Shown: piece by piece, positions 4,110 to 20,984 of the stretch
Layout: every line of letters starts with the position of its first letter
Position numbering within the stretch: the stretch's first letter is position 1
From: Candidatus Latescibacterota bacterium
Lineage (GTDB): Bacteria > Latescibacterota > UBA2968 > UBA8231
Direction of reading: 5' to 3'
Length of the DNA stretch: 64,000 nt
Assembly (NCBI GenBank): GCA_965221775.1
Contig: CBDCSU010000004.1
Span: 704,001-768,000, forward strand
Program-made: the position numbers and the translations under genes
The notes under the pieces: generated by a model
Told to the model about the DNA's origin: nothing
The model's input: only the letters and a program-made list of their open reading frames with translations
Databases searched by the model: none

Positions 4110-4863
4110 CTCCCCTGCCGATTCGTTCCAGACAGCTGTCGATGACGTAGCGGTACTTCGAGTATCCGCGCTGCACCAGGGAGAAGCGTTTCACCAGGTC
4201 CAGGGCCCAGAAAGGCACCAGGGACTCGGTCTTGATCTCCACGACGACGGGAGAGCCCGCCCACTGCGCGGTGACCTCGTCGTCGTAGTAGCTCATCTCC
4301 TCGTCCCGGCTCCACAGGTCGTATGAACCGCTCATCAGCCGGTAGCGCATGGCGCGGTCGAAGGTTATGCGGCCGTAGGCGTCGACCTCGCTCACGTAGG
4401 GCTCCCGCTCATAGCGCACGTGAAGGACCGGTTCGGTACCGTACAGGTGGTGCAGGTCGACGAAGGAACGGGGCATGGTCTCGTGGCGGGGCGACGTGCG
4501 ATCCTCCCTGGCCACTTGAAGCACCCCGGGCCACTCGCTCGTGGCAATGCGCTCGCGGACCTTCCAGACGGTGTGGCTGTGCCGGTACTTGACCTCGAGG
4601 GTAGCCGAGCCGGCTTGGCCGGTTCCGTAGTAGCGGACCCTCGGCTTGAAGCGCAACAGCTGGCGTAGCCTGGTGTCGTTGTAGAAACGCAACCCCGGAG
4701 TGTCCATGTACACGCTGTTCACCGTGTAGTGTGCCTGCTCCGCGGGGAGGTTGGCGTCGAGGGTGAACAGCGGTTGAATGAACTGGCGGATCTCCGCAGC
4801 CAGTTCCTCGGTCACGGTGTATTTCAACTCGTACCGGTGGATGGGAGAGAGGTCAATCGCCAT
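4093..4863 (-). CDS. VTC / polyphosphate polymerase (CYTH-like) domain protein
   Basis: RYELKY, YTVNSVYMDT, RFKPRVRYYG, LEVKYR, VRYEREPY, RITFD, VVEIK, YSKY; start placed at MAIDLS (4863). Confidence 0.88.
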   Translation of the reverse strand: MAIDLSPIHRYELKYTVTEELAAEIRQFIQPLFTLDANLPAEQAHYTVNSVYMDTPGLRFYNDTRLRQLLRFKPRVRYYGTGQAGSATLEVKYRHSHTVWKVRERIATSEWPGVLQVAREDRTSPRHETMPRSFVDLHHLYGTEPVLHVRYEREPYVSEVDAYGRITFDRAMRYRLMSGSYDLWSRDEEMSYYDDEVTAQWAGSPVVVEIKTESLVPFWALDLVKRFSLVQRGYSKYRYVIDSCLERIGRGDDVAV

Positions 4864-6163: not shown

Positions 6164-7215
6164 GGGCCCGCTCTCCCGAGCACGGAGGATCGATCGATGA
6201 AGCCCACGCGCACAGACTCACCAGGCAGCAGAAGGTGACCGGCCTCGAGGACGACGCGGACCTTCCGGGCCCACAGCATCTGCCCGCGAAGCCACAGCCG
6301 CTCCGGCATCGGTGAGTACCCTGGATGGACGAAGTCGATCCGCCCCCGGGCGTCGAAGTCGCCCGACCGTCTCGACATCACTTCCACCGCCTGGCCGACC
6401 TGCAACTGCAGGTCCTCCGTCTCCGGGACGTAGACTTCCACCACGGAGGCCTGGGCACTCTCCACGGTGACGATGGGCAGGAAGGCGTCGACCGTACTGC
6501 CCGGCAGAGCCAGGATCCGGGAAACCAGGCCATTGGAAGGCGACCGGACCGTTCGATACTCGATGCGCTGGTCGATGAGCGTGATCGACTGACGGACCTC
6601 GTGGATGCGCTGCAGGCGGTCTCCGAGAAGTGAGGTCAGGATACTGTCGCCGAAGGCGGCCGAATCGTCGCTGCCGAGGTGCACCACTTCGGGCCGGATG
6701 AGCGCCGACTGTTCGGCGACGGACCGCGCCAGGACATCGCGGCGAATGGTCATGCGGGTCAGATCGCGGTCATGGCCCAGGCCGGCCTTCTCCGCGGCCA
6801 CCAGCGCCTCGATCTCCCGGCTGAGGGCATCGAGCTCGGCTTCCTCCGCCTGTACCTGGGCGTATCGCTCGGACACGCGCAGCCGCAGCAGGTCGTACTC
6901 GACGTGGTAGCGGCGCCGGTCCGCCGCCGCGATCGACTCCAGGACGGCCAGCTCTTCCGCACGCAGCCGCCTCTCCGCCGACAGGTCCGACACGTCCAGG
7001 CGAGCCAGGACCTGTCCGGCCGCGACGGCCTGGCCCACTGCGGCGTGCATCTCGTGGATGGTTCCCCCCTCGCGGGCCCCCACCGACTGCACCGTGGACA
7101 CGACGGTGCCCACCAGGTACGGATCGACCTGCCACTGCCAGTAGCCGTAGACGGCCGCCATCACGGCCACCGCCCACAGGGCACGGAAGGAGTTCCTCGT
7201 CAGCCAACGCTTCAT
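6160..7215 (-). CDS. HlyD family membrane-fusion (periplasmic adaptor) protein
   Basis: N-terminal TM; lipoyl half-motifs GTIHEMHAAVGQAVAAGQVLARLD and VRSPSNGLVSRI flanking a coiled coil; beta-barrel ending LLPGESVRV. Confidence 0.85.
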   Translation of the reverse strand: MKRWLTRNSFRALWAVAVMAAVYGYWQWQVDPYLVGTVVSTVQSVGAREGGTIHEMHAAVGQAVAAGQVLARLDVSDLSAERRLRAEELAVLESIAAADRRRYHVEYDLLRLRVSERYAQVQAEEAELDALSREIEALVAAEKAGLGHDRDLTRMTIRRDVLARSVAEQSALIRPEVVHLGSDDSAAFGDSILTSLLGDRLQRIHEVRQSITLIDQRIEYRTVRSPSNGLVSRILALPGSTVDAFLPIVTVESAQASVVEVYVPETEDLQLQVGQAVEVMSRRSGDFDARGRIDFVHPGYSPMPERLWLRGQMLWARKVRVVLEAGHLLLPGESVRVGFIDRSSVLGRAGP

Positions 7216-7218
7216 GGG

Positions 7219-7899
7219 CTACACCTCCACTGCAGAGGTGTGGTTCATGAAGGTCAACCCGCGAAGGCCCTCGATCCGTCCCAAGGCCTCGATCAATCGC
7301 GTCGAGTCCGCCTCCCGGACGAGCTTGACCTGGTATGTGCAGTCCACGAGATCGCCCTGGGCCACGTCGCGCATCGTCACCAGGCCGAAGGTCCGCGGTA
7401 TCTGCTGAAACACCTGGGCCACCTGGGCGGCGAAGTCCGGCGCCGCCGGGATCTGGAAGCGCACGAGTCCATCGAACTTCATGCGCGTGCCGAAGAGAGA
7501 GGAGTGCATGAGCACGGCGGTGGTACAGAACAGGGCGGTGGCGAGGGTGGCAGCGATGTAGCTCTGCACCCCGCTGGCCACGCCCGCACCGAGAGCGGCG
7601 AAGAGGAACACCAGGTCCCGGGGATCGCGCAGGTTGGTGCGGAAGCGGATGATCGCCAGCGATCCCACGATACCGATGCCCCTGGCCACGTTGTCGCCGA
7701 TGGCGATCATCAGCAGACAGGTGATGAGGCTGCCCAGCCCCATGGTCTCCATCAGACCCCGCGACCAGGACAGGCCATGGAACGTCCACTCGTACACCAT
7801 TGCGATCGTGCTCGACAGGCAGAAGGCGAATACCAGGGAGAGCAGCACCGTATTCCAGTGGAGCTTGATCGTCCCGAAATCGAGCAGCAGACTGTCCAT
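7219..7899 (-). CDS. DUF4956 domain membrane protein
   Basis: IGDNVARGIGIVGSLAIIRFRTNLRDPRDLVFLFAALGAGVASG signature; ATG at 7899 with AAGGAG RBS. Confidence 0.88.
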   Translation of the reverse strand: MDSLLLDFGTIKLHWNTVLLSLVFAFCLSSTIAMVYEWTFHGLSWSRGLMETMGLGSLITCLLMIAIGDNVARGIGIVGSLAIIRFRTNLRDPRDLVFLFAALGAGVASGVQSYIAATLATALFCTTAVLMHSSLFGTRMKFDGLVRFQIPAAPDFAAQVAQVFQQIPRTFGLVTMRDVAQGDLVDCTYQVKLVREADSTRLIEALGRIEGLRGLTFMNHTSAVEV

Positions 7900-7935
7900 C
7901 AGCTGGTCTCCTTTGGCGTCGTGCCACGTGTGGCA

Positions 7936-7951
7936 TGCAAGAATTGTGCCG
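7936..7951 (-). promoter_or_regulatory. sigma54 (-24/-12) promoter of the DUF4956-HlyD-TolC-VTC-CotH operon
   Basis: Minus strand reads CGGCACAATTCTTGCA: GG-N10-GC, close to consensus TGGCACG-N4-TTGCW, 37 bp before the ATG. Confidence 0.8.
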
Positions 7952-8043
7952 TCCACAGGGCCGCCTGCCGCAGCACCCGCCACCGGCCAGTCTCTGCCCG
8001 CACCCCCGACTGTGGGCCTGCAGAGGCAGGGCGCATCGGAGCT

Positions 8044-8125
8044 CTCCGGCTCTCGGGACAACCGCCTCTTCCGCTTTCCTGGACGGGCACTCGGCCCAGT
8101 GGGGGGTCAGTCCGATTCTCCGGAC
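8044..8125. promoter_or_regulatory. Putative bEBP enhancer (UAS) array
   Basis: Perfect-arm palindrome GTCCG-ATTCTC-CGGAC at 8110-8125; degenerate copies TTCCG-CTTTCC-TGGAC at 8069-8084 and CTCCG-GCTCTC-GGGAC at 8044-8059. Confidence 0.65.
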
Positions 8126-8398
8126 CGGTGCTCTTGACCCATCCGCCAAGGGACGCACCCAGCTGGCACGGGGCATTGAAGACCGCCGGCCGCACCGGTC
8201 CGGCGCGGCCAAGGGCAGGAGATCAGGGTGCTGGCGCTATCGGCGCGCTACGAAGGAGAGCGCCGAGCGCTTCTCAAGAGGCGAGTACTCGCGCCGAGGG
8301 GCGTACGAGGAACCAGCTTCACGGCATGCATGGGGCTGCAGGAGGACGAGCGGGTCGAGGACGACGCAGAGGTCGCGTCTCCCCGGGACTGGCGCCAA

Positions 8399-11300
8399 CT
8401 AGTCCCGGGAGGCCGGGACCACCTGTAGGAGCTGGCGCTGTCGCAGGTCTCCATCCTCCAGGTACACACAGACGTACAGTCCAGGGGAGACCAACCGCCC
8501 CCCGCGGTCGGTTCCATCCCAGGCGAGGGTGCGGCTCTCCGGACCTGCCGTCAGTCTCTCCACCAACTCGCCGGCCGTGTTGAAGATCCGTATCTCGACT
8601 CTTCCCGAGCCACGGAACCAGAAGGTCGTAGGCTGTCCCCGGGAGACCGGATTGGGATAGTTGTAGACCGCGATCTGCTCGTCGATCACCTGCGCCGTCA
8701 GGATCACGGTCCGGGTGCCCCCGTCGCCGGTCAGGCTCAGGACCTCCTGAACCTTCTCCGACTTCCCCGATAGACCGTCGTCGATGGCCGACCTGAAGAG
8801 GACCCACACCTCCGCCGTGTCCCCGGATGCCAGGCTGAGGGACGACATTTCCGCGGCGAACTGGCGGGTCCCTTCGACCGTCGGTGGATCCAGGTTGAGC
8901 CGTGCATCACCGCGGTTGTGCACCGGCAGGGCCTTCCACAGGGAGTCGCCCACGGAGACGCCGCCGAAGTCCAGGGTATCGGCAAGCACTTCCAGCACCG
9001 GCGCTACGCCCGTGAGCGTGAAGGAGACCTGGATTGTCGGTTGGTCGGGATCATTGCTCTCTATGGTCAGGATGCTCACATGCGGGCCGAGCCGACCGGG
9101 AGAGACGGGGACCGTGACCTCGCTGCTTTCCCCGGGTTCCAGGGGCCAGGGAAAGCGGTCTTCCAGAGCCTCCATGGGCTCACCGTCCCAGAGGAGTTCC
9201 TCGATGACCAGCTCCGCCTCACCCGCGTTGGTAAGGGTCAAGATCACCGGGACGGCCTCATCTGCCCTGACCTCGCCCAATTCCACCAGGCGCGGCTCGA
9301 CTTCCAGGCGCGGCTTGATTCCACGCCCCCTCAGCGGCAAGTCGAGGAAGCTGTTGTCAGGGTCGTTGCTGGTCAGTCCCAACGATGCCTCCACGGTACT
9401 GGCGTCGCGAGGACTGAAGGTGATCACCACGGTCGTATCCCTCCCCGGTTCCAGGTCAAAGGACTGAGGCGATACCCTGAATTGCTCGTCCGTCGTGGCT
9501 GCGTCCACACCCAGCAGACCTGTGCCGCTGTTTTCCACGACCAGAGTCCTTTCGGCGGACTTGCTCACGGCCACTTCTCCGAAGAAGACCGTGTCGGAGA
9601 CCGATACCTGGATCTGCGGCTTCTGGCTGCCGGCCTTGAGATCGATGATGATCACCGGCGCATTGGGATCGTTGGTTGTGAGCACCAGCGCCGCCTCAAT
9701 CCTCGGGAAGTTGGTCGAGGGATCGAATTTCAGCTCCATGACCAGACTGTCACCCGGACTGATGCTGATCCCGGGGCCGGGGCTCTCCACCTCGAACTCC
9801 GGTTTGGTCGTGATGAGCTGATTGATCACCAGATCGGCCTCGCCCCTGTTGTAGAGCACCAGTTCTCTGTGGACAGGGTCGCCGGAAATGCCGAAATCGA
9901 CGCGATCGGAGGACAGATCTATCTCGGGGATCAGCTGGGACATGACAATGCTCACGCTATCGCTCTTGAGCCCCGGGGCGGAGGCCTTCACCGTGGCGAT
10001 TCCGGGCAACGTGCCCGCTGTAAAGGAGACGCTGGCCATGCCCTGCACTACTACGGCGCTGGATACCTCCAGGTGGCCCAGATCCTCGGGACCTTCGACA
10101 ACCGCAAAGGACACCTCCGTGCTGTTGTCGGTCTTGAGCCGCCCCCCGAGGGAGTCCTGCACCACGGCGGTCAGGATCGATCTGTCCTCGCCGTTGGCTC
10201 TGATGCTCGCGGATGAGGCCTCCAGGACGATCTTGAACCGGCTCAGGACGATACCGAAGACCCCTCCACCAACGGTGCCGGCGTAGACTTGCCGGGGGCG
10301 AGAGCGCCCCATTGCCACGGTCAGCACATCGGGGTGGGTCAGACCCGGCTCGACGGGCTGCCAGCTGTCGCCGCGGTCCAGGCTGCGGAAGACCCCGCCG
10401 CGAGTGCCGGCGTACAGGTGCAGTGAATCGGCCGGGTCCAAGGCCAGGGCGCGAATCGACGAAGGGGTCAGCCCCGCGTTGATCTCCTCCCAGGTGAGGC
10501 CGTGGTCCAGGCTGCGGAAGATCCCGCCGTCGGTGCCGGCAAAGACGGCACGGCCCGCCGCATCCAGGGCCAGGGCCCGCACCGACAATCCCCCCATGCC
10601 GTCGCTCGAGGGCGTCCAGCTCGAGCCCCCGTCGCCGCTGCGGAAGACCCCCTCCCCGGTGCCCGCAAAGACCAACTCCCCCCCCGGATGCAGCGCCAGG
10701 GACTGCACCGACAGGGCAGCCAGCCCCTGGCTGCCGGACGACCAGCTCAATCCCCCGTCGAGGCTGCGATAGACCCCCTTCTCCGTGCCCGCAAAGACGG
10801 CCGTCCCCGTCGCCCCCACCGCCAGGGCTTGCACGGACAGAGTATCGAGTGCCTCGGCGGCTGACGACCATGTCGAGCCGCCATCGAGGCTGCGGTAGAC
10901 CCCGGCATGAGTGCCGGCGAACATCCGTGGAGGCGAACCCGGGTCGACCAGGAGCGCATGGACTTCCAGACCGGCCTGACTGCGCGTCCAGGAGGCGCCT
11001 CCGTCGAGGCTGTTGAAGATCCCGGACTCGCCCCCCGCGTACAGGCGCAGCGCATCGGAAGGATCCACGGCCAGTGTCCGCACCGACAAGGCGGACAGAC
11101 CTTTGTTGGCCTCCCCCCAACTCGTCCCCCCATCGAGGCGGAAGACCCCGGCCCGGGTACCCGCAAACAGCCGCGAGCCGTCGAGCGGGTCCAGCCACAA
11201 GGCTCGCACGGGCACCGTGGGCAAACCCTGGTCGAGAGCGGTCCACGTAGCGCCCCCGTCGAGGCTGCGGAAGACCCCGGACTCGCCCCCCGCGTAGAGC

Positions 11301-12082
11301 CGCAGGCCATCAGAGGGGTCGACGCCTACAGCGTTGACGGCTGACAGCCGCAACCCCTCGCCGACCGGCTCCCAGCTGGCGCCCCGGTCGCTGCTGCGGA
11401 ACAGGCCGGCGTCCGTACCGGCGTACACCCATCCCGAGCCGCCGTCCACGGCCAGGACCCATACCCCGGCCCCGCCCAGCCCCTCGCTGGCGCCGGTCCA
11501 CGTCTGCCCCCTGTCCTCGCTCAGGAAGACGCCCGCCTCTGTACCCGCGTACAGGCGCAGCGTATCGGCGGCCTCCACGGCCAGGGCTCGCACGGGACCG
11601 ACCAGCCCCTGGCTGGAGATGTTCCACTCCAACCCCCCGTCCGCAGTCGACAGGAAGCCGGCGTCCGTGCCCGCGTAGGCGCGCAGGGTGTCGCGGGGAT
11701 CGATGGCCAGGGCCGCCACCGACAGGAGCTCCAACTCCTCCCCGGTGGACCACGTCGAGCCACCATCGAGGCTGCGGAACAGCCCGGCATCGGTGCCGGC
11801 CAACAGGTACAGAGGACGTTCCGGATCCACGGCGAAGCTCCGCACGACCCGGCCGGCGATGCCGGAGGCGATCCAGGTCGCGCCCCCGTCGAGGCTGCGG
11901 AAGACCCCATCCATCGTGCCGGCATAGACGACGTGCCCGGCGTCAGGCCGCGTTGCCAGGGCCGCCACCGGCCCCCCGAAGAGACCGAACGGACTCCAGA
12001 CATTCTCCGCGCCCCAGGCCCTCGGCGCGGCTCCGAGGAGCATCATGCTCGCGAGCAGGCTTCGCCTCCCCCGCCCCGTCAC
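8399..12082 (-). CDS. Secreted BNR/VPS10-type beta-propeller protein (14 blades) + Big_1 Ig + four ASH/choice-of-anchor D domains + FlgD/T9SS-like CTD
   Basis: Signal peptide; ~14 repeats V.ALAVDP..LYAGT..GVFRSLDGG.TW; ASIRANGEDRSILTAVVQD; repeated DFG.V..N.G.A.L..TNDP; C-terminal YNYPNP..IFNTAGELV..WDGTD..VSPGLY. Confidence 0.85.
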   Translation of the reverse strand: MTGRGRRSLLASMMLLGAAPRAWGAENVWSPFGLFGGPVAALATRPDAGHVVYAGTMDGVFRSLDGGATWIASGIAGRVVRSFAVDPERPLYLLAGTDAGLFRSLDGGSTWSTGEELELLSVAALAIDPRDTLRAYAGTDAGFLSTADGGLEWNISSQGLVGPVRALAVEAADTLRLYAGTEAGVFLSEDRGQTWTGASEGLGGAGVWVLAVDGGSGWVYAGTDAGLFRSSDRGASWEPVGEGLRLSAVNAVGVDPSDGLRLYAGGESGVFRSLDGGATWTALDQGLPTVPVRALWLDPLDGSRLFAGTRAGVFRLDGGTSWGEANKGLSALSVRTLAVDPSDALRLYAGGESGIFNSLDGGASWTRSQAGLEVHALLVDPGSPPRMFAGTHAGVYRSLDGGSTWSSAAEALDTLSVQALAVGATGTAVFAGTEKGVYRSLDGGLSWSSGSQGLAALSVQSLALHPGGELVFAGTGEGVFRSGDGGSSWTPSSDGMGGLSVRALALDAAGRAVFAGTDGGIFRSLDHGLTWEEINAGLTPSSIRALALDPADSLHLYAGTRGGVFRSLDRGDSWQPVEPGLTHPDVLTVAMGRSRPRQVYAGTVGGGVFGIVLSRFKIVLEASSASIRANGEDRSILTAVVQDSLGGRLKTDNSTEVSFAVVEGPEDLGHLEVSSAVVVQGMASVSFTAGTLPGIATVKASAPGLKSDSVSIVMSQLIPEIDLSSDRVDFGISGDPVHRELVLYNRGEADLVINQLITTKPEFEVESPGPGISISPGDSLVMELKFDPSTNFPRIEAALVLTTNDPNAPVIIIDLKAGSQKPQIQVSVSDTVFFGEVAVSKSAERTLVVENSGTGLLGVDAATTDEQFRVSPQSFDLEPGRDTTVVITFSPRDASTVEASLGLTSNDPDNSFLDLPLRGRGIKPRLEVEPRLVELGEVRADEAVPVILTLTNAGEAELVIEELLWDGEPMEALEDRFPWPLEPGESSEVTVPVSPGRLGPHVSILTIESNDPDQPTIQVSFTLTGVAPVLEVLADTLDFGGVSVGDSLWKALPVHNRGDARLNLDPPTVEGTRQFAAEMSSLSLASGDTAEVWVLFRSAIDDGLSGKSEKVQEVLSLTGDGGTRTVILTAQVIDEQIAVYNYPNPVSRGQPTTFWFRGSGRVEIRIFNTAGELVERLTAGPESRTLAWDGTDRGGRLVSPGLYVCVYLEDGDLRQRQLLQVVPASRD

Positions 12083-13680
12083 GGCGGTTCCGCCTGTCCC
12101 CTCAGCAGCTCGAAGAGGCGGTTGCTCCCTTCTCCCTTCTGCAAGTACTCCAGCTGCGACAGTCCGGCAAGGTCCACCCGGCGGCCGGCCAGCTCGATGG
12201 GATCGCCGCGGCTGAGTCTGGCCGCTTCGCGATAGCAGTTGGCAGCGCCGGTGAAGTCACCGGAGAGTTCCGACAGCAGGCCGGCCACGTAGTAGGTGTG
12301 GGGGTAGCTGGGGTCCCGTCGCGCGGCTGTCAACAGCCACCGCTCCGAGTGGGAGGTCTCGCGGCTCTCCAACCGGCTGTAGGCCCTCGCCACCGCGGCG
12401 ACGGCCTCGGGGTGGTGCTCCAGGGCAAAGGAGCCCCGCAACCGCACCCGCTCCTCCAGCAGAATCTCAAAGGCATATCGCCCCTCGAGCAGATAGCCGC
12501 TGCCCTCAAGCCAGTCCGCGGCGGGCTGGAAGGGAAAGGCGACCCCGTGGTCGGACAGGTGCAGATCATCCGCACGGACCTCTTCCAGAACCACCCCGTC
12601 GGGGCCGTAGAGGATCAGTTTCAGACGTCGATGGTCCCAATCCCGGGCCGAGGTGGGATAGCGAAGCTCGATCTGCAACAGGGCTTCATCCGCCGGCCGC
12701 AGACGGGCCTCGGGGACCGGCTCTCCGTCGCGCTGCAGGCGCCAGCCATCGAAGTGGAGCGGAAACTGGTAGCGCCCCCAGGAGGCGGCCACCCCCAGGG
12801 TCCTGGTGTCGCCCAGGAAAGGCCGGTCCTCCACGATGTACTGCGCGGTGCCGCGGCCCGAGCCCACGGTCAGACCCAGGCGCCAGCTCGTGCCCACGCC
12901 CGAGGTCCGCTCGATGGCGCCGCCCAGGCTCAGGTCGAGAGGCCCTGGCGCCAGGGGCGCGCTGACACCAAGGGTCCAGCGCCCGCTGCGCGGCTGACAG
13001 CCGATCGACAGCAGCGGGCCTTTCCTCACCACGGCCGCGCTCAGAATCGGGCTCCATGGCGCTCCGTCCAAGGTCGACCAGGCATTGCGCACCGTCGCTC
13101 CCAGGCGCAGTTCGAAGGCTTGGTCGAGTGCCAGGGCAGCCAGTCCTCCGACGTCCAGCCCGACGTCACTCCAGCTCTGGCTGCCGGTATCGACCCGGAG
13201 CCAGTGGATCCCCAGACCGAGTTGGGGCGGGCCTGCATCGGTCCAGGGCCGCAGCCCCTCAAAAGCCTTGCCCGCTGCCATCACGACCCGGGCTTCGCCA
13301 TGGGATCCGTAGCCCTCGATATTCCCTTGAGGATCGGACCGCAGCACGCGGCTGGTGCCCAGGCGATCCAGGCCGATTCCCCCGCCCCACGAGTTGTTGC
13401 TGCGCACGAGACTGACCAGGTCGTGGCCGAGGTCCAGCCCGTCGAATACCTCGGCGTGCGAGAAGGCCGCGTGGTACCGTCGCTCCAGCCTTGCCAGACC
13501 CGCTGGATTCCAGTAGAGCCCACCCTGGTCCGCGGCCACCGCCACAGAAGCCGGCCCCAGCACCGCTGCCCGTCCCCAGGCCGCGGGATGGGCGAAGGCC
13601 CCCTCGACCTGGCCCTGGACCCGCCCGGCGCTCACCAGCAGGAGCGGCCCGGCCCACAGCAAGGTCCGGGCGCGGCTCAT
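12079..13680 (-). CDS. PorV/PorQ (UPF0164)-like outer-membrane barrel protein with C-terminal TPR-like region
   Basis: Signal peptide; GRAAVLGPASVAVAADQGGLYWNPAGLARL; amphipathic strands; C-terminal DPSYPHTYYVAGLLSELSGDFTGAANCYREA. Confidence 0.7.
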   Translation of the reverse strand: MSRARTLLWAGPLLLVSAGRVQGQVEGAFAHPAAWGRAAVLGPASVAVAADQGGLYWNPAGLARLERRYHAAFSHAEVFDGLDLGHDLVSLVRSNNSWGGGIGLDRLGTSRVLRSDPQGNIEGYGSHGEARVVMAAGKAFEGLRPWTDAGPPQLGLGIHWLRVDTGSQSWSDVGLDVGGLAALALDQAFELRLGATVRNAWSTLDGAPWSPILSAAVVRKGPLLSIGCQPRSGRWTLGVSAPLAPGPLDLSLGGAIERTSGVGTSWRLGLTVGSGRGTAQYIVEDRPFLGDTRTLGVAASWGRYQFPLHFDGWRLQRDGEPVPEARLRPADEALLQIELRYPTSARDWDHRRLKLILYGPDGVVLEEVRADDLHLSDHGVAFPFQPAADWLEGSGYLLEGRYAFEILLEERVRLRGSFALEHHPEAVAAVARAYSRLESRETSHSERWLLTAARRDPSYPHTYYVAGLLSELSGDFTGAANCYREAARLSRGDPIELAGRRVDLAGLSQLEYLQKGEGSNRLFELLRGQAEPP

Positions 13681-15587
13681 TCGAACAGTCCCACCAGGTC
13701 GTCCCTCCCCAGCATTCTCGCCAGGACCGCAGCCCTGTGGGCATTCTCCGCGGACAGCCCGCCGCGCCGCGCGATGCGCAGCATCTCCACCCAGGCCTGT
13801 CCAACCGTCACCGGCACCAACACTTCGACCACGGCGCCGGGATCGACCTGCAGACGCTCGACGTAGTCGGCCTGGCCGGGACGCAGGACGTGCAGCTTGT
13901 AGGTCCCGGGCAGGAGAGTCGAGAGGCGGATGGGCAAACGGTCGCCGAAGCGGTTCTCCTCGGTCGCCTCCTGAAGGAAGAGCCCGGCCTCAAAGGCGAC
14001 CTCATCCCCCAGATCGAGGGTATCGACCCGCGCTCTGACGCGCAGTCGGGCCGGCTCCTGCTCGAGGAGGATCCGCACCGTGGTTTCGTCGACCACCTCG
14101 ATACGCTCGGGGGCGACCGGATAGCCGACCCCGTACTGAGCCGCCCGCAGCTGCAGCAGCGTCAGGTTCGCCCGACCGCGGATCAGGCGCTCGTCGAAGA
14201 CCACGAGGCCCCTTGAATCCGCCCGGCCCAGCAAGAGATCCGCGGCCCACAGCTCGATACCGGGCCAGGGTACCCCCTGCCCGCCGACCACGGTCACTGC
14301 CACGGGCTTGGGCTCGAACACGACCCGCAGATCGTAGACGCCCGGCTCGCGAGACTCGGTGGCAAAGCGGCCCCGCTCGAAGGCGAGCCCCAACTGGACG
14401 AGGCTGATCGCTTCGAGTTCGTCGGGGGCCAGTCGCTTTCTGACCCGCACCCGCCCCCGGCGGTTCGTGGTGCCGGCCGCCTCTCCGTTGAGCAGGACGT
14501 CGACGTCGGGGAAGAGCCGCCCGGAGGTGTCCAGCACCTCGATGGTGAACAGGTTCTCGGCCGGGCGCAGCAGAACCGACCTGTGGATGCGGCCCGGACG
14601 GAGCATCTCCACCACGGGCGAGGTCGGACTGGCTTCGTACCCGGGCCGCACCACGGCGAAGGTGTGGCGGCCAGGCTCCACGAGAAAGACCCCCGGGGTC
14701 ACTCCGAGGGTGTCGCCGTCGAGCACGACGATCGAGCCGGGGGGGTCGGAGTCCACCTGGAGGAGGGGCGGCACGATCGAAAAGCTGCGCACGGCCTCCT
14801 CATTCGACAGCCGGGGCCCCTCCCCGTCCGGGTCGGTCACCCGGACCGCGACCTCCCCGAGGCCGACGTGACCATCGCCGTCTTCATCGCGGCCCGTCTT
14901 CAGCTCCTGGAGCAGGCGCGCAGTGAACCCGCCGTCCACGGCGGGCCGGCGGCCGACTTCGACCACGCCAGCGCTCTCCGGAAGGAAGTCCCCCCGGTGT
15001 CCGCCGGGGGTGAAGCCGTCGTACTCCCGGTCGTCCGCCGGCGAATCGGGGCTGGTGAAACCCTTGCCGCCCATGTCCCCGCTGTACGAGGCGTCGATGA
15101 CCGCGCAGGTCCGAGTCGTTCTCAGGCGCTGGAGGAACTGGCCTATCTCGTCGTCGCGCAGGAAGCTCTCCCCCGTCGCCCCCTGGGCGTCAAAGGGCAA
15201 GAGGCACTCGTCGTACTGATCGACCTGCTCGTCGAGAAACAGATCGTCCTCGAGGCGGGAACCGCGCCCCGAGAAGTAGAACAGGAACAGATCGTCCCCG
15301 CCCACCTGGCTGATGAGCGCCTGAAAGGCCCGATGAATGCCCTCGTAGGTGGCGGCCGAATCGGTGAGAGCCACGATGCGGTCGAACCCGCCTTCAACCG
15401 TCAGGAAGCGCTGCAGAGCGCCGACTTCGGACACCGGGTGCTCCAAGGGCGGCACGCCCGATCTCTCGGGATAGGCCGCCACGCCCACCAGCATGGCCCA
15501 GCGTTGAGCGCTCCAGGAGGCTTGACACAGACCCAGGAGCAGGACCGCCACAGCCATTCCCCTCCGCCGGCCGCCCATGGGACTCAC
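13677..15587 (-). CDS. Exported caspase-like (C14, catalytically degenerate) + PEGA domain protein
   Basis: Signal peptide; RWAMLVGV..Y, LTDSAAT, LFYFSGRG, DECLLPFD, IDASYSG; PEGA VDSDPPGSIVVLDG..LGVTP; start uncertain (GTG 15587, ATG 15578 or 15557). Confidence 0.8.
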   Translation of the reverse strand: MSPMGGRRRGMAVAVLLLGLCQASWSAQRWAMLVGVAAYPERSGVPPLEHPVSEVGALQRFLTVEGGFDRIVALTDSAATYEGIHRAFQALISQVGGDDLFLFYFSGRGSRLEDDLFLDEQVDQYDECLLPFDAQGATGESFLRDDEIGQFLQRLRTTRTCAVIDASYSGDMGGKGFTSPDSPADDREYDGFTPGGHRGDFLPESAGVVEVGRRPAVDGGFTARLLQELKTGRDEDGDGHVGLGEVAVRVTDPDGEGPRLSNEEAVRSFSIVPPLLQVDSDPPGSIVVLDGDTLGVTPGVFLVEPGRHTFAVVRPGYEASPTSPVVEMLRPGRIHRSVLLRPAENLFTIEVLDTSGRLFPDVDVLLNGEAAGTTNRRGRVRVRKRLAPDELEAISLVQLGLAFERGRFATESREPGVYDLRVVFEPKPVAVTVVGGQGVPWPGIELWAADLLLGRADSRGLVVFDERLIRGRANLTLLQLRAAQYGVGYPVAPERIEVVDETTVRILLEQEPARLRVRARVDTLDLGDEVAFEAGLFLQEATEENRFGDRLPIRLSTLLPGTYKLHVLRPGQADYVERLQVDPGAVVEVLVPVTVGQAWVEMLRIARRGGLSAENAHRAAVLARMLGRDDLVGLFE

Positions 15588-17614
15588 GGCTGCTTGAGAC
15601 GGTACTTGCGGATCAGGTCGTAGAGGCGGCTGCGCGACAGGCCCAGATCGCTGGCCACGATTTCCAGCTGCCAGTCCTTCTCCTCGAGCTTGTCCAGGAT
15701 CCACTTGCGATCGAATTGCTCTCGGGCCTTGCGCAAGGTCAGGTCCCTGTCGAGGTCGAGCTCCGCCGCTTCCCCGGGCTCCTTCTGCAGGCGGCCCCAG
15801 AGATGGAGGACCTGCAGGCGCTCTCCCCCGGCCATGACCCGGGCGCTGGTCAACTGATTCTCCAGCTCGCGGATATTCCCCGGCCACTGATAGCCTCTGA
15901 GCAGCTCCATGGCTGCCGGGTCGATCCCGGCGGGGTAGTCGGCCAGGAAGTGCTCCACCAGCAGCGGGACATCGATGAGCCGCTGACGCAAGGGCGGCAG
16001 GGGGATGACCAACACGTAGAGGCGGTAGAACAGATCGGCTCGGAACCGCCCCTCGGCCACTTCCTTTTCCAGGTCCCGGTTGGTGGCGCAGACCAGGCGC
16101 ACGTCCACCGGGCGCGGGTGCTCCTCCCCCACCCGCTGTACCTCCCCCTCTTGCAGCACCCGCAACAGCTTCACCTGGGTGGACGGGCTGGTCTCGCTGA
16201 TCTCGTCGAGGAGCAGAGTGCCCCCGGTCGCTGCCTCGAACAGTCCCTTGCGATCCTCGAAGGCCCCGGTGTAGGCCCCCTTCTTGTGACCGAACAGTTC
16301 GCTCTCGAGCAGACTCTCGGTGAGGGCGCCGCAGTTGATGCCGAGGAACCGCCCGTGGCGCCGGGCGCTCGTGCGGTGGATTGTGCGCGCCACCTCCTCC
16401 TTCCCCGTGCCCGTCTCACCGTGCACCAGTACGGTGATGTCCGACTCACTCGCTTTCTGCATGAGGACGAAGACGCGACGCATGGTGCGGCTCTGACCGA
16501 TGATGTGGGGGAATGGCTGCTCCCCCTGGGGCACGGGTTCGACCTGGGGCAGATGCACACCCCCGCCCGCCGGAACCGGAAACTCTTCGGCTCCGGTTCC
16601 ACCCCGATCCTCTGCGCGCCGGAGGGCTTCTTCCAGCAGTCTGTTGCGAATGCGGCAGAGACCATCGTCCCCCCGGCGAATGGCTCCCAGCAGTTCCAGT
16701 TGGGTAACCAACGGGGAGGTGCGGTCGTGGCGCGGTTGCTTTCTGCCCTCGAGTAGAGCTCTGAGCCACTGGGAGCCCTCGGCAGAACGCGTGAGACCCG
16801 CCACGACCCGCTGGAGATTGTCGTCGCCGCGGCTGAGCAAGCGCTCCGCTGCCTCTCCGACCTTCAGGTCGGGATCGGCTCCGAGGAGCACACAGAGGCG
16901 CGCCGTGAGATTGGGGTGCCCCTGGGCCCACTCGTGGACCGGGCCGGTGAGAGCCCCCCCTCTGGCGTCGGCTCGCTCGAGGAGTTGCAGCATCTGCCCA
17001 ACCCCCTCGATATCGAAGTCGGTGGTGTAGACCTCCTCGCTGATGTTGAAGGGCGACAGACCGCTTTCGGGAGCGATGAGGGTTCGCGGATCCGTGGCCC
17101 CGGCAAGGACGAAGACGTAACGCTCGAACTCGGGCTGGGTAGCGCGTTCGTTGTACACCGTGCGGATGGTGCCGAAAAAGCCCTCCCGCCAGGGCTGGGG
17201 AACCGCCTCGAACTCGTCGAGACTCACGACGATGCGCTTCACCCCTGCGCAACCCGCTATGGTCTTGAGGTCCTGGTAGAACCCGATCGATTCGGCGCCG
17301 GCCTGCACCGTACTCCGCTCCGCCACGGACAGGGCCCCGGCAATGCGATCACCGACAAAGCCGTAGAGCTGGGCACATCCGGCGTCTTTCACCGGGGTCA
17401 GGTCGATCGGCACCGAGACGTACATATCGGCTGACAGACGGCGGTGCAGGTGGTACAGGAGGCTCGTCTTGCCCGTCTGGCGGGCCCCCAGGACGGTCAC
17501 GTAGTGGCCGCGCCGGACCAGTTCCAGCACTTCGTCGTCCACCGGTCTTTCCACGTAGAGGCTCTGCTCGGGATCGGCGATGGGGCCGCGCGTCTGGATC
17601 TTCCTGAGTGCCAT
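15584..17614 (-). CDS. sigma54-dependent enhancer-binding protein with N-terminal AAA_35/STAND-like ATPase and C-terminal Fis-type HTH
   Basis: N-terminal YVERPVD..GARQTGKTS, SLDEFE, SPFNI, GHPNLT; central HGETGTGKE, ESELFGHKKGAYTGA, LLDEI, KLLRVLQE, ATNRDL, FRADLFYRL, WPGNIRELEN; HTH ASDLGLSRSRLY. Confidence 0.92.
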   Translation of the reverse strand: MALRKIQTRGPIADPEQSLYVERPVDDEVLELVRRGHYVTVLGARQTGKTSLLYHLHRRLSADMYVSVPIDLTPVKDAGCAQLYGFVGDRIAGALSVAERSTVQAGAESIGFYQDLKTIAGCAGVKRIVVSLDEFEAVPQPWREGFFGTIRTVYNERATQPEFERYVFVLAGATDPRTLIAPESGLSPFNISEEVYTTDFDIEGVGQMLQLLERADARGGALTGPVHEWAQGHPNLTARLCVLLGADPDLKVGEAAERLLSRGDDNLQRVVAGLTRSAEGSQWLRALLEGRKQPRHDRTSPLVTQLELLGAIRRGDDGLCRIRNRLLEEALRRAEDRGGTGAEEFPVPAGGGVHLPQVEPVPQGEQPFPHIIGQSRTMRRVFVLMQKASESDITVLVHGETGTGKEEVARTIHRTSARRHGRFLGINCGALTESLLESELFGHKKGAYTGAFEDRKGLFEAATGGTLLLDEISETSPSTQVKLLRVLQEGEVQRVGEEHPRPVDVRLVCATNRDLEKEVAEGRFRADLFYRLYVLVIPLPPLRQRLIDVPLLVEHFLADYPAGIDPAAMELLRGYQWPGNIRELENQLTSARVMAGGERLQVLHLWGRLQKEPGEAAELDLDRDLTLRKAREQFDRKWILDKLEEKDWQLEIVASDLGLSRSRLYDLIRKYRLKQP

Positions 17615-17639
17615 GGATGCTCTCTTCGGTGGCTGGTGC

Positions 17640-20600
17640 CTACGCAGAGGCAAGGTCCCGGGAGAACCCCGTTCCGGGCTTCACTTGTTCGATGGCCTCG
17701 TCGATGTTCTTCACTCTGTGGAGGATTTCCGGGAAGGCCTTGGCGGTGAAGGCATAGGGGGGACGATCCGTCTCCAGGATGGCGCACATGTGGAGATTGG
17801 ACAAGGCCGTGTCCAGAGCCGCTCCCGGAACCTCCAGGCCGGCGCGCCGCAAACCCTCTTCCAGCCCTTCCCGCGACAGCCCGGGGCCGCCAGGCGCCTC
17901 GGCCATGACCAGGGTCACGGTGCGTTCGAGGGGATCGCCCTGGCCCCAGATGGTCTCGATGAACTCGGCCTGGAACTCGCCCGAATCGAGCACGCTCTGG
18001 CAGTGGTACGGGGTGACCCGCCGGCTCTGCTCGCGGGCCATGCGGCGCACGAGCCGGTCGCACAGGTACTGGATGATGCGCGGATGGCAGGAGGAGACAC
18101 CGAGAATCCGTCCCACGAGGTCTTCGGCATCGACCAGCTCTATGTCCATCAGCTCCATGGGCTCGACGACGATGCGCCGGGCATTGGCCGGATCGAGATA
18201 GCGCAGAGGCAGGGCGTCACAGAAATTGAGCATGGGCGAGGCCAGGTCGTGGAGCTGACCGTGGAGAATGCGCTCACCGCTGAACACGAAGCGGCACTTG
18301 CCCTCTTCCGACAGGGCCCTGAAGGTCTTGAAGAGGAGCTCGTCGTGATGGGTGTCAAAGCGCAGCAGGGCGTCCATCTCGTCCATGAGGAAGACGATCG
18401 TCTTCTCCTCTTCCTCGTATAGCCGGGTGATGAGCTGGTGGAAGCGCTCGGGCTCCTCCCCCTCCACCTGCAGGCCCCAGTTGCTGCGCACGTGGGCGAA
18501 GAAAGCCTGGTAGTTGGTCACCGCCTGATAGTTGGCGTAGAAGGGCCGGTAGTCGCTGGCGGGAAGCCTGAAGGTGCGGTACACCTTCTGCAACACGGAA
18601 GTCTTGCCGATGCGGCGCCCCCCGACGATGCCGATGTTCTTGGTATGGAGCGTCTGGACGATGGTCTTGATCTCCTCTTCGCGGCCGAAGAAGATCGTGT
18701 CCGGCACAGGTCCCGTCGTGACATAGGGAGAGACGACGATGAGATCGACCTGTTGCAGCACCGGGCGCATGAAGACACGGTGGCGGAAGTGGTCGGTGGA
18801 AGCGGCGATCCTCCTGATCTCCGCCTGGCTCAGAACTATGAAGTCGTATCCCAGGCCCTGGGCCTGGGTCCTGATGGTGAAGCGGGCCTCCAGCTCGTTC
18901 AGGTAGACCACCACCAGGGCAAAGCGGCCGATGAGCCCGAAGGACTCCATCAAGGTCCGCAGATGGGACAGGTCCTCCGCCTCGAAGACCGGGCGCTGGA
19001 GGAAGATCAGGGGAAAGGGTGATGGGATCTTGGCGCCCCGCAGCGATGTGGTGTGGACGACAGTGCCCCAGAAAGGCCCACTCCGCCGGCCCGCTTCCTC
19101 GTCCACGGTGAAGCCCAGGGTCCTGCACAGCAGGTCGGCCCCCTGTCCCGCGGCCTCGGCAAAGGCCCGGAGCGCGGACGGACGGCTGGCGTTCAGCAGG
19201 CCGAGCCCCTGTCGCCAGTGCTCGTCGAACTGCCGCAGAACCTGGCGCTGCGCCGGGGCAAAGGCGATGTGCTCGCCGTCGACCTCCAGGTCGAACTCCT
19301 CGTGTTCGGCCATGTAGCGCTGTCCGGCGTACGAGCGGTGGATGCGGGGAATGCCCCCCAGGTGAAACCGGCCCACCGATCTCCCATCCTCGTGCGGGCC
19401 GGTCCCCTGGTCGAGATCGTCGTTCCACACTCCGAGGAGCCCTTCCTCGATCTGCCGGTCCCAATTGGGGTAGCTGCGCCGCCGGTCCTCCTTCACCTGC
19501 CGCTGGCGCCGGATGCGGTACCCCAGACAGGCGGCGACCAGCAGGGCTGCCCCGCTGCCCGCCACGATCCGGTCCCAGGGCCGCGCGGTGGGCGGCGGCT
19601 TCAAGCGTGCCCGGACGGGCTCCTGGCGGTTGGAGCCATCCACGGTGAGCTCCTTCTTCCAGACCGCCTCTCCCTTGCTGACCCGCAGGGTGTGGGTGCC
19701 CGGTTCCAGGAAGACCTCCACCGGCGTCGTCAGGTCGACCAGGCGGTCGTCGATCCACACCTGGGAGTGGAGGGAGTCGGAATCGATGACCAGGGTCGCA
19801 CCGGCCAGGGGCAGACTGCGGAACAGGCGATTGGCCGGCTGCAGACGGGGCCGTGCCGTCTCTCGGAGCCGGCCCAGCTCGTGCAGCGACTCGTACACCT
19901 CGCCCAACCTCACCACGTGGTCGGCCTCCCGCAGCTGCGCGGCCAGAGGCACGGTGAACACGCCCTCCCGGATCGCCTCGGCCGGACCGCCGGCGCTGAG
20001 CACGGCGGCGTCTGCCGGCAGGTAGTCGGTCCGGGTGATGCCGTCCAGGAAGCCGGCTTCCGCCATTTTCTCCAAGGGGCTCGTCACACCCTTGTCCGAC
20101 AGCCCGTCGCCGGTGTACCCGGCGTCGATGGCGACGACCGTGTAGCGCCCCCGCAGTCTGCGCAACTGGCGCCCCAACTCGTCGTCGCGCCAGTACGTGT
20201 CCGTCTGTCCATGGACGGCATCGACCAACAGCAGGCACTCGTCGAGCCGGTCCGGTTCCATATCCGGATAGAGGTCGTCCCTTGTGCGTGTGCCGCGGCC
20301 TGAGAAATAGAAGAAGACCAGGTCCTCCTCCCCCACCTGGTCGGACAGACGGGCGAAGAGCGTTTGCAGGGAGGCCCGGGTGGCCTCGGAGTCGACCAGG
20401 CTGCTGATGCGCTCGGGGTCAAAGGCGGCGCCCTCGATCAGGGCCTGCCGCACGAGTTCGACATCGAGCGGGGCTCGCTCCAGGGGTTGGAAGCCCGAGT
20501 CGGGACCATAGGCTCCGACACCGACCAGAATGGCCCAGCGTTGGCGGAAGGAGAGGTGCTCGTACTGGCTGCTGGCCGCGGCATCGGCCAGCGGCAGGGC

Positions 20601-20666
20601 CAGGATCAACGTCAACACGCCTGTCAGGCGGCACCGAGGGCCTGGGACGGCAAGTCCCTGGGTCAT
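17640..20666 (-). CDS. Transmembrane protein: exported pseudo-caspase + PEGA + TM + cytoplasmic STAND-like AAA ATPase
   Basis: Signal peptide from MTQGL (GGAGG RBS); RWAILVGV, FFYFSGRG, IDAGYTG; PEGA-like QVWIDD..TTP..LEPGTHTLRV; TM IVAGSGAALLVAACLGY followed by RIRRQR; SPYVTTGPV..FFGREEE, GGRRIGKTS, FLMDEMD, CHPRIIQYLC. Confidence 0.85.
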   Translation of the reverse strand: MTQGLAVPGPRCRLTGVLTLILALPLADAAASSQYEHLSFRQRWAILVGVGAYGPDSGFQPLERAPLDVELVRQALIEGAAFDPERISSLVDSEATRASLQTLFARLSDQVGEEDLVFFYFSGRGTRTRDDLYPDMEPDRLDECLLLVDAVHGQTDTYWRDDELGRQLRRLRGRYTVVAIDAGYTGDGLSDKGVTSPLEKMAEAGFLDGITRTDYLPADAAVLSAGGPAEAIREGVFTVPLAAQLREADHVVRLGEVYESLHELGRLRETARPRLQPANRLFRSLPLAGATLVIDSDSLHSQVWIDDRLVDLTTPVEVFLEPGTHTLRVSKGEAVWKKELTVDGSNRQEPVRARLKPPPTARPWDRIVAGSGAALLVAACLGYRIRRQRQVKEDRRRSYPNWDRQIEEGLLGVWNDDLDQGTGPHEDGRSVGRFHLGGIPRIHRSYAGQRYMAEHEEFDLEVDGEHIAFAPAQRQVLRQFDEHWRQGLGLLNASRPSALRAFAEAAGQGADLLCRTLGFTVDEEAGRRSGPFWGTVVHTTSLRGAKIPSPFPLIFLQRPVFEAEDLSHLRTLMESFGLIGRFALVVVYLNELEARFTIRTQAQGLGYDFIVLSQAEIRRIAASTDHFRHRVFMRPVLQQVDLIVVSPYVTTGPVPDTIFFGREEEIKTIVQTLHTKNIGIVGGRRIGKTSVLQKVYRTFRLPASDYRPFYANYQAVTNYQAFFAHVRSNWGLQVEGEEPERFHQLITRLYEEEEKTIVFLMDEMDALLRFDTHHDELLFKTFRALSEEGKCRFVFSGERILHGQLHDLASPMLNFCDALPLRYLDPANARRIVVEPMELMDIELVDAEDLVGRILGVSSCHPRIIQYLCDRLVRRMAREQSRRVTPYHCQSVLDSGEFQAEFIETIWGQGDPLERTVTLVMAEAPGGPGLSREGLEEGLRRAGLEVPGAALDTALSNLHMCAILETDRPPYAFTAKAFPEILHRVKNIDEAIEQVKPGTGFSRDLASA

Positions 20667-20732
20667 GGCCGCCTCCGCGTGCCGGCGTGGTCCGAGTCCG
20701 AGGGTGAGGAGGTCTGCATGTTCAGCCAAGCT

Positions 20733-20748
20733 AGCAATATGCGTGCCG
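20733..20748 (-). promoter_or_regulatory. sigma54 (-24/-12) promoter of the pseudo-caspase/STAND/bEBP operon
   Basis: Minus strand reads CGGCACGCATATTGCT: GG-N10-GC, matches TGGCACG-N4-TTGCW except the first base. Confidence 0.82.
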
Positions 20749-20802
20749 GCGACAAACCGCTCGAAAACGTCCAACGGCGGGGCATGTAGCGTGCGGCGGC
20801 CA

Positions 20803-20877
20803 GCCTGGCTCGCCGGACTTCATGCGGTTTTCTGGACAGGGCAGCCCCGGATCGGTCGTCTGTCCGATTTTCCGGAC
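20803..20877. promoter_or_regulatory. Putative bEBP enhancer (UAS) array
   Basis: GTCCG-ATTTTC-CGGAC at 20862-20877 (15/16 identical to 8110-8125); degenerate ATGCG-GTTTTC-TGGAC at 20822-20837 and GCCTG-GCTCGC-CGGAC at 20803-20818. Confidence 0.65.
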
Positions 20878-20984
20878 AGCCGCCGCTCGGGCTTGACCGT
20901 TCTTGCGGAAACGGCCTGTATCGGGGCATGCGGTGTGCCCCACCGCGTCGCCGGAGATCAGAGCCTGCTCCCTGCCAGCAAGCC

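Follow-up and report, generated by a model that had tools for sequence, protein, structure and literature searches.

The accessible portions of two papers place the binding sites of sigma-54 activators 100–150 bp (PMC7057263) or 100–250 bp upstream, in the latter account usually as multiple sites and with the target genes usually lying beside the gene of the activator (PMC6615313). For the Clostridiales, the available part of the second paper records that 93 of 263 activators control two to six operons (PMC6615313). Here we describe a locus of comparable layout in a stretch of 64,000 nucleotides from Candidatus Latescibacterota bacterium (contig CBDCSU010000004.1, positions 704,001 to 768,000; hereafter the window), in which two sigma-54-type promoters, P1 and P2, each stand downstream of the same two-part DNA motif, and P2 precedes an operon that encodes a predicted sigma-54 activator.

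Two described activators serve as further points of reference. NtrC binds sites of the type TGCACC-N5-GGTGCA, while MalT, one of the signal transduction ATPases with numerous domains (STAND), acts at sigma-70 promoters through a LuxR-type helix-turn-helix (HTH) and carries a C-terminal sensor arm.

The pairing of motif and promoter in the window is real and lies well beyond chance. Its interpretation as a shared enhancer is well supported, and the activator encoded in one of the two operons is a reasonable prediction for the protein that binds it. The sites and promoters are highly likely to be functional elements of regulation; the full statement, namely two sigma-54 promoters with two-part enhancers bound by an operon-encoded activator that would regulate its own operon and be gated by an N-terminal NTPase, strikes us as moderately probable.

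Promoters, upstream sites and their conservation

An exact GGCAC-N5-TTGC occurs only twice in the window, at P1 and at P2, in both cases correctly oriented before a gene (Table 1). Both promoters keep the GG-N10-GC spacing and follow the pattern TGGCAC-N5-TTGCW from the GG onward. By the usual convention that places the GC element at -12, transcription would start near 7925 at P1 and near 20722 at P2, leaving 26 nucleotides (nt) and 56 nt, respectively, to the start codons at 7899 and 20666, the former of which is preceded by AAAGGAGA. When one mismatch is allowed, the promoter pattern matches 12 times in the window against 18.7 expected. A terminator or sigma-70 reading of the two promoter regions was rejected, as scans of 7700–8600 and 20500–21200 found neither a sigma-70 consensus nor a terminator-like site.

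Upstream of each promoter lies a 16-bp inverted repeat, site a (GTCCGATTCTCCGGAC at P1 and GTCCGATTTTCCGGAC at P2), the two copies being identical at 15 of 16 positions; a preliminary description of this DNA, made from the sequence alone, had given the sequences and coordinates of both promoters and both palindromes correctly. The exact form GTCCG-N6-CGGAC is found only at these two places, against 0.36 expected (at least two in 4 of 100 shuffles), and each copy has a promoter match no more than 300 bp downstream of it on the same strand. Among 1000 simulated first-order Markov windows, a single one held at least one such pair and none held two; it is this pairing that gives the strong signal. 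A weaker second site, site b, had been proposed 41 and 40 bp nearer the promoter, and this was borne out (from 8084 at P1 and from 20837 at P2); the offset corresponds to about four helical turns. The two upstream regions share a collinear stretch of about 55 bp that takes in the palindrome and site b, with an alignment score of 38; the best of 500 shuffles scored 30 and the best of 485 real windows from this sequence 35.

The preliminary description had gone on to credit both promoters with the same palindrome and spacing. The palindrome is indeed shared, as is the 40–41 bp between sites a and b, but the distance from palindrome to promoter is unequal (P1, 175 bp; P2, 130 bp). Relative to the predicted starts, the centres of sites a and b come to lie at about -192 and -152 (P1) and at about -148 and -108 (P2), positions that fit the 100–250 bp range published for activator sites.

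Could the palindrome instead function in the transcript, as a hairpin or as the terminator of the gene before it, or be a chance product of GC-rich DNA? The P1 copy does lie 274 bp past the stop codon of a same-strand gene (that of a protein of 1227 amino acids, aa), and the degenerate motif is common, with 106 matches at up to two mismatches against 118.9 expected. However, the stem spans only 5 bp and is not followed by a T-run, the scans of both regions showed no terminator-like site, no Rfam family was matched, P2 has no co-directional upstream gene because its neighbour is divergent, and the pairing with promoters is far beyond what the simulations produced. Taken together, these points leave such an explanation scarcely credible and close to refuted.

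To compare the locus with others, the activator was aligned with three full-length homologues and the resulting profile was used to scan species-representative genomes, which gave 109 pattern matches, three of them encoding a relative. L001 is a metagenome-assembled genome (MAG) titled Gemmatimonadaceae whose activator shares 89% protein identity, L002 a MAG titled Candidatus Latescibacterota (90%), and L003 carries an unrelated gammaproteobacterial activator that is 39% identical over the sigma-54 domain only. Both L001 and L002 are collinear with 5.5–28 kb of the window at about 91% DNA identity, and over seven shared genes their 4-fold degenerate sites are identical at 2080 of 2502 and 2088 of 2428 positions (83–86%). 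The comparison of orthologous loci covers these two genomes and leaves out the loci of the activator homologues P0002 (68% identity) and P0003 (65%). As an aside, L001 and L002 bear conflicting taxonomic titles although each matches one and the same part of the window at about 91% DNA identity, so that at least one of the labels is inconsistent.

A scan of homologous loci for the motif near -24/-12 elements, which had been suggested as a check, turned out in favour of the arrangement: both promoters, site a and site b are kept at both orthologous loci, each of which holds two exact GGCAC-N5-TTGC matches at the orthologous places. At P1, L001 and L002 both retain the exact palindrome. For site a of P2, three versions of the left arm are seen (window GTCCG, L001 GTGCA, L002 GTCCA); the right part, GAAAATCGGACAGA, is invariant in the three genomes, forming with 14 nt the joint-longest invariant run of the P2 alignment. 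Invariant as well is CTGTCC, the left half of P2 site b.

These elements stand out from intergenic DNA that has otherwise diverged with insertions and deletions, leaving just 164 of 347 columns invariant at P1 and 187 of 391 at P2; directly 5′ of the P1 palindrome, the sequences of the genomes no longer align at all. Ranked by length, the invariant runs of the P1 alignment are headed by the palindrome and its flank (19 nt, 8128–8110), followed by site b (13 nt, 8088–8076, GCCCGTCCAGGAA) and the -24 element (10 nt, TGGACGGCAC). Such a footprint of invariant runs on site a, site b and the -24 element amid diverged DNA supports the reading as a shared enhancer. Across six instances of the a–b module, 30 of 73 columns are invariant and are concentrated in GT.C.GA.AATCGGAC.GA and GTCC.G.AA..C; the consensus of site a is GTsCrGArAATCGGAC, a 16-bp inverted repeat, whereas site b is half-conserved (GTCCrGrAA...). 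In the order window, L001 and L002, the offset between the sites is rigid at 41/41/41 bp (P1) and 40/40/40 bp (P2), while the distance from site a to the promoter floats (175/172/172 and 130/131/99 bp). A rigid internal layout combined with a free distance to the promoter is what is expected of an enhancer. The larger indels respect the same boundaries: a 24-bp insertion in both relatives abuts the module on its upstream side, and downstream of it L002 has lost 32 bp, or about three helical turns, both changes lying outside the module.

The likeness of the two upstream regions also invites a purely historical explanation, in which the ~55-bp module and a sigma-54 promoter were duplicated during assembly of the operons and are shared among the relatives through recent divergence. 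The collinearity of the similarity, which includes the spacer between sites a and b, would suit such a history, and so would the closeness of the three genomes, which are 83–86% identical even at 4-fold sites. We nevertheless hold it to be improbable, given that the intergenic DNA has diverged between the three genomes with the longest invariant runs remaining exactly on sites a, b and -24, that the 24-bp and 32-bp indels flank the module without ever entering it, and that between P1 and P2 the spacer is far less conserved than the sites. 

A position weight matrix (PWM) built from the eight L001 and L002 sites ranked the four a and b sites of the window first to fourth (14.6–26.0; next best 12.7), a result that is partly circular in that the training sites are orthologous to those of the window. 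The same matrix bears on a third, degenerate site that the preliminary description had placed after site b at both promoters. A match is present in each case, but it is at background level. We rejected it as a distinct element on the strength of its background match count, its unequal offset from site b (25 bp at P1, 19 bp at P2), its low PWM score (at most 8.1, against 14.6–26.0 for the a and b sites) and its loss from P2 through the 32-bp deletion in L002; at P1, it is altered in L001 (GCCCC).

Some further sequence features were seen around the promoters and sites. The 10-nt direct repeat GCCGGCACGC occurs twice, at 20740–20749, where it overlaps the P2 -24 element, and at 20677–20686, just 5′ of the first gene's ribosome-binding site; this latter copy falls in a 14-nt run that is invariant across the three genomes and comes without a matching -12 element. 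A perfect TGGCACG at 7921–7927, between P1 and the start codon, has no TTGC at the right distance and is kept in L001, not in L002. On the minus strand at 8529–8544, GTCCGGAGAGCCGCAC is a one-mismatch version of the palindrome in the 3′ end of the gene for the 1227-aa protein, about 420 bp upstream of P1 site a; it is identical in L001 and L002 but lies within coding sequence, scores 10.7 with the PWM and may be a candidate for a remote third enhancer site. Finally, at 20890–20922, two invariant 13-nt runs (GATACAGGCCGTT and GAACGGTCAAGCC, minus strand) flank an inverted repeat CCGTT...AACGG that sits between the P2 enhancer and a divergent gene for an S15 peptidase (plus strand, start near 20985). 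This repeat may be a promoter or operator of the peptidase gene, and the sigma-70 consensus scan found nothing at it.

The activator and its input domain

The second gene behind P2 encodes a 676-aa protein whose start at ATG 17614 is backed by homologues. From the N-terminus, it consists of an AAA_35 or ORC/STAND-like NTPase, some 40 residues of disordered linker, the sigma-54 AAA+ domain with its lid, and a putative Fis-type HTH, with Pfam matches above cut-off to Sigma54_activat (229.8 bits, cut-off 20.2), AAA_lid_14 (58 bits) and AAA_35 (47.7 bits, cut-off 27). GETGTGKE, the Walker A and B motifs, the variant loop GAYTGA and the HTH helix LGLSRSRLY.LIRKY are conserved in all four family members aligned; a tyrosine at this position of the GAFTGA loop is found in few activators according to the available part of PMC7057263.

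The protein is the only one in the 64-kb window with a sigma-54 AAA+ domain (tblastn), and P2 would drive the operon in which it is encoded, which makes it a plausible binder of the sites. According to the mechanism that we propose, the activator would bind sites a and b as dimers through its C-terminal Fis-type HTH; the dimers would sit on the same face of the helix and then assemble into an ATPase ring. By looping to the closed complex of sigma-54 holoenzyme, the ring would open both P1 and P2. Opening of P2 would amount to positive autoregulation of the activator's own operon (operon A), and P1 would switch on the adjacent DUF4956-HlyD-TolC-VTC-CotH operon (operon B) alongside it. The N-terminal ORC/STAND-like NTPase would gate the activity in place of a receiver, GAF or PAS domain.

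Several points weigh against this proposal and are best considered together. The base preceding the GG element is a C in both promoters where the consensus has T, and the number of exact GGCAC-N5-TTGC matches is weak evidence when taken alone (2 against 0.74 expected; at least two in 20 of 100 shuffles). No IHF-like site with up to one mismatch was found in either enhancer–promoter spacer (73% and 67% GC), and rpoN is absent among the 35 open reading frames (ORFs) scanned in the window, which comprises only 64 kb; the presence of a sigma-54 activator implies rpoN indirectly. The variable left arm of P2 site a means that the exact palindrome is not required at P2, and the closeness of L001 and L002 makes the conservation of a 16-mer only modestly informative. 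The HTH falls short of the HTH_8 cut-off (17.8 bits against 22, E = 0.0029), even though it covers positions 2–42 of the 42 in the profile; the homologues P0002 and P0003 carry a precomputed PF02954 assignment. More generally, the link between sites and activator is drawn from sequence and position, and the loci compared belong to close relatives. Lastly, DUF4956, the first protein of operon B, is widespread across phyla (494 matches) and the activator fusion is confined to three clusters, which would make the sigma-54 wiring of operon B, if real, a lineage-specific addition.

It follows that the sites might be real and yet be bound by something else, be it a different sigma-54 activator from another part of the genome, or else a repressor or accessory DNA-bending protein with an effect on both promoters. 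Nothing in the present data ties the HTH, with its sub-threshold HTH_8 match, to the site sequence, the window shows only 64 kb of the genome, and the accessible text of the Clostridiales study lists 38 of 263 activators as not encoded beside their targets (PMC6615313). Against this, the gene for the single sigma-54 AAA+ protein of the window belongs to one of the two target operons, a scan of 23 ORFs across the remainder of the window gave no further regulator of the sigma-54 activator type, and two sites four helical turns apart and 100–200 bp upstream have the typical geometry of activator sites. We therefore regard a different binder as possible but unlikely, and retain the operon-encoded activator as the predicted one.

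What sets this activator apart is its N-terminal domain. An AlphaFold2 model of the domain reached a predicted local distance difference test (pLDDT) of 87 and a predicted template modelling score of 0.84, with pLDDT below 50 in the linker of about 40 residues that follows. Foldseek matched it best to the archaeal Walker-type ATPases 2qen (E = 1.3e-11, TMq 0.59) and then 2fna, with further matches to ORC/Cdc6, plant NLR resistosomes, Avs3, CED-4, the maltose-system entry 8bob and a STAND-TPR protein. Walker A (GARQTGKTS) and Walker B (LDEFE) motifs are present, and in the model the domain appears to comprise the STAND core, i.e. a P-loop nucleotide-binding domain (NBD), a helical domain and a winged helix of the ORC/Cdc6-AP-ATPase-like type. 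The preliminary description had called the protein a STAND activator. This label is apt as far as the ORC/Cdc6- and STAND-like fold goes, but Pfam assigns the domain to AAA_35 rather than to a curated STAND model (nSTAND3 at 21.8 bits stays under its cut-off of 27.2), and a Pfam scan found no repeat sensor (TPR, WD40, LRR or HEAT) in the 676-aa protein.

Among homologues of the N-terminal domain, 3 of 52 carry a sigma-54 domain, the remainder being joined to TIR, winged-helix, CHAT, kinase, cyclase or phosphatase domains, and an end-to-end match to the activator came from one cluster among 1.84 billion representatives. When 22 of the 150 listed matches were checked with Pfam, AAA_35 was found in none. 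Judging from these searches, the fusion of an ORC/STAND-like NTPase with a sigma-54 activator is rare and the input domain unusual. The searchable literature yielded no account of a sigma-54 activator with an input domain of the STAND type, and nothing relevant on PF14516/AAA_35.

Two observations among the checked matches are worth recording. P0062 (MFH1567632.1, from a Gemmatimonadota MAG; 690 aa) combines nSTAND2, Sigma54_activat and HTH_8, seemingly as an independent fusion of a STAND module with an activator. Furthermore, 17 of the 22 (P0053, P0055, P0058–P0061, P0063–P0068, P0070–P0073 and P0076) contain two or three tandem sigma-54 domains, an odd layout for a normally homo-hexameric protein.

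The two operons

Table 1. Features of the locus, in positions of the 64-kb window
Feature	Sequence	Position	Strand	Remarks
P1, sigma-54-type promoter	CGGCACAATTCTTGCA	7936..7951	minus	exact GGCAC-N5-TTGC at 7937-7950
P2, sigma-54-type promoter	CGGCACGCATATTGCT	20733..20748	minus	exact GGCAC-N5-TTGC at 20734-20747
Site a of P1, inverted repeat	GTCCGGAGAATCGGAC	8110..8125	minus	175 bp before -24 GG
Site a of P2, inverted repeat	GTCCGGAAAATCGGAC	20862..20877	minus	130 bp before -24 GG
Site b of P1	GTCCAGGAAAGCGGAA	8069..8084	minus	starts 41 bp after start of site a; PWM 24.6
Site b of P2	GTCCAGAAAACCGCAT	20822..20837	minus	starts 40 bp after start of site a; PWM 14.6, fourth in window
Doubtful third site of P1	GTCCCGAGAGCCGGAG	8044..8059	minus	background-level match; PWM 8.1
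Doubtful third site of P2	GTCCGGCGAGCCAGGC	20803..20818	minus	2 mismatches, i.e. background level
Operon A gene 1, membrane protein, 1008 aa		17640..20666	minus	Peptidase_C14, PEGA, AAA_22; nSTAND1 below cut-off
Operon A gene 2, predicted sigma-54 activator, 676 aa		15584..17614	minus	AAA_35, Sigma54_activat, AAA_lid_14, putative Fis-type HTH
Operon A gene 3, caspase-like and PEGA protein, 631 aa		13677..15572	minus	Pfam PEGA, Peptidase_C14
Operon A gene 4, 533 aa		12079..13680	minus	weak N-terminal PorV/PorQ-like match (NCBIfam PorV2, 31.4 bits vs cut-off 325)
Operon A last gene, surface protein, 1227 aa		8399..12082	minus	F510_1955, 254.5 bits; choice_anch_D, 122.3 bits
Operon B behind P1, five genes		1422..7899	minus	Pfam and NCBIfam; neighbouring ORFs 3 nt apart or overlapping
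Operon B, DUF4956		7219-7899	minus	
Operon B, HlyD-type adaptor		6160-7215	minus	
Operon B, TolC/OEP-type outer-membrane protein		4853-6163	minus	
Operon B, VTC domain		4093-4977	minus	ORF; start uncertain
Operon B, CotH with lamin-tail and type IX secretion system tail		1422-4109	minus	

Operon A is tightly packed behind P2, with gaps of at most 25 nt or 4-nt overlaps between its genes. Its first product, the 1008-aa membrane protein, consists of outer caspase-like and PEGA domains, a single membrane helix recognised by eye and, on the cytoplasmic side, a STAND-type NTPase; caspase models of NCBIfam and PADLOC match it as well, and its orthologues align from ATG 20666. The 533-aa protein matched no Pfam family, and the 1227-aa protein at the end of the operon has BNR/sortilin-type repeats, Ig-like domains and a C-terminal FlgD_ig tail resembling those of the type IX secretion system (T9SS).

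The preliminary description had spoken of two otherwise unrelated operons, which is an overstatement. Operons A and B are adjacent and co-directional, P1 lying in the 500-bp gap that follows operon A; both encode envelope proteins, and the last protein of each carries a C-terminal tail of the type IX secretion kind and is a likely substrate of that system. No terminator-like site was found in the 500-bp gap, so that transcripts of operon A may run on into operon B, with P1 perhaps giving an internal boost. The envelope and secretion content of both operons fits the proposal, as set out in the accessible part of PMC3162934, that sigma-54 mainly controls the bacterial exterior.

Linkage of the genes can be followed to some extent through accession numbers. 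In the L001-type MAG, NCBI accessions follow the order of the genes: the DUF4956 protein is MCY3735827, the activator MCY3735831 and the caspase-STAND protein MCY3735832. For P0002 (NKB68411.1), the 10 NCBI-sourced DUF4956 clusters checked of the 120 listed included no neighbouring accession, a result that speaks neither for nor against linkage in that genome, and no NCBI homologue of the caspase-STAND protein with 60–70% identity turned up.

The position of the caspase-STAND gene just upstream of the activator gene suggests one way in which a signal might enter. The activator lacks a recognisable sensor and might be turned on by forming hetero-oligomers, through its ORC/STAND-like NTPase module, with the cytoplasmic STAND NTPase that belongs to the membrane caspase-PEGA protein; the one direct hint comes from co-folding, and we consider the idea improbable. 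Co-folding of residues 395–1008 of the 1008-aa protein with residues 1–340 of the activator gave a score of 0.48 against 0.00 for the best of three controls, with runs agreeing in at least 77% of contacts and a partner pLDDT of at least 81. This counts as a weak pass: of 157 solved complexes, 116 attained the mark, as did 2 of 215 mismatched pairs, and scores of up to 0.60 were those of just 18 of the 157 solved complexes and of both mismatches that passed. Both chains being AAA+-type NTPases, the pass may reflect mere likeness to solved AAA+ assemblies. If the idea were true, it would describe a new route from the envelope to sigma-54, whereby an extracytoplasmic caspase-like sensor or protease drives a STAND-to-STAND relay that amplifies itself through P2 and, through P1, deploys type IX secretion cargo together with the DUF4956-VTC-CotH module. 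Homology between the NTPase modules of the two proteins was also considered and rejected, BLASTP having aligned only the Walker A region (25.8 bits, E = 0.002).

The cytoplasmic part of the 1008-aa protein is of interest in its own right. It is composed of a region of about 250 aa without an assigned family and an AAA_22/nSTAND1-type NTPase, and the homologues P0206–P0277 carry this module joined to HEAT repeats, kinases, FHA, TIR, CHAT and DpnII-type domains. It behaves as a widely shuffled module of signalling or conflict systems. Membership of the locus in a known defence system was rejected, PADLOC having returned only generic caspase and RtcR/PspF-type AAA+ matches.

In operon B, the DUF4956-VTC-CotH trio is interrupted by the HlyD-type adaptor and the TolC-type protein. 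The DUF4956 protein shares 57–75% identity with homologues labelled Latescibacterota, Myxococcales, KSB1 and Bacteroidota, and in the searchable literature we found only passing mentions of DUF4956, CotH and VTC.

Comparison with described activators and regulons

The layout of enhancer, sigma-54 promoter and regulator that would activate its own operon is classical, and the DNA logic of the locus adds nothing new to sigma-54 biology. Like NtrC at glnAp2, it has what would be tandem dimer sites for a Fis-type HTH, here a putative one, placed an integral number of helical turns apart and, as in that system, 100–150 bp or so upstream of a GG-N10-GC element; as with NtrC-family enhancers in general, the predicted binder is an AAA+ activator that would oligomerise on the sites and whose gene lies in or beside an operon that it would control. 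It differs from NtrC in the motif, which is of the GTCC-N8-GGAC type, in having an ORC/STAND-like NTPase instead of a phosphorylated receiver, and in the lack of an IHF-like site in the spacers scanned.

The regulons reconstructed for the Clostridiales by comparative genomics, as far as the accessible part of that study goes, resemble the present one in having the activator gene beside its targets, multiple sites, a conserved sigma-54 promoter and a size of one to six operons (PMC6615313). The same part reports TGT-N10-12-ACA motifs in 15 of 39 groups, from which the motif found here differs (PMC6615313). The comparison made here is confined to three close genomes. The abbreviations list of that paper names GAF, PAS, PRD and RR domains and no P-loop NTPase (PMC6615313).

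Parallels to the input domain are found among STAND proteins. In activators of the MalT type, an NTP-binding module of NBD, helical domain and winged helix gates a DNA-binding activator, as would be the case here, with oligomerisation as the presumed switch; the present module, in contrast, precedes a second ATPase, the sigma-54 AAA+ domain, and is accompanied by no repeat sensor. P0062 is alike in length and in its arrangement of a STAND-type NTPase, sigma-54 AAA+ domain and lid, with its Fis HTH standing where the putative one does here, but its N-terminal NTPase is nSTAND2 (126.4 bits) rather than AAA_35, and its best stretch matches residues 284–675 of the query only.

What the locus offers in addition to these precedents is, first of all, a concrete candidate regulon for an uncultured lineage labelled Latescibacterota or Gemmatimonadaceae—one activator, one motif, two promoters and ten genes with envelope or secreted products. 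Its novelty may rest in the activator, in which an NTP-binding ORC/STAND-like switch is set before the sigma-54 ATPase. The motif and its two promoters would then provide a read-out for studying how an activator with two ATPases is gated.

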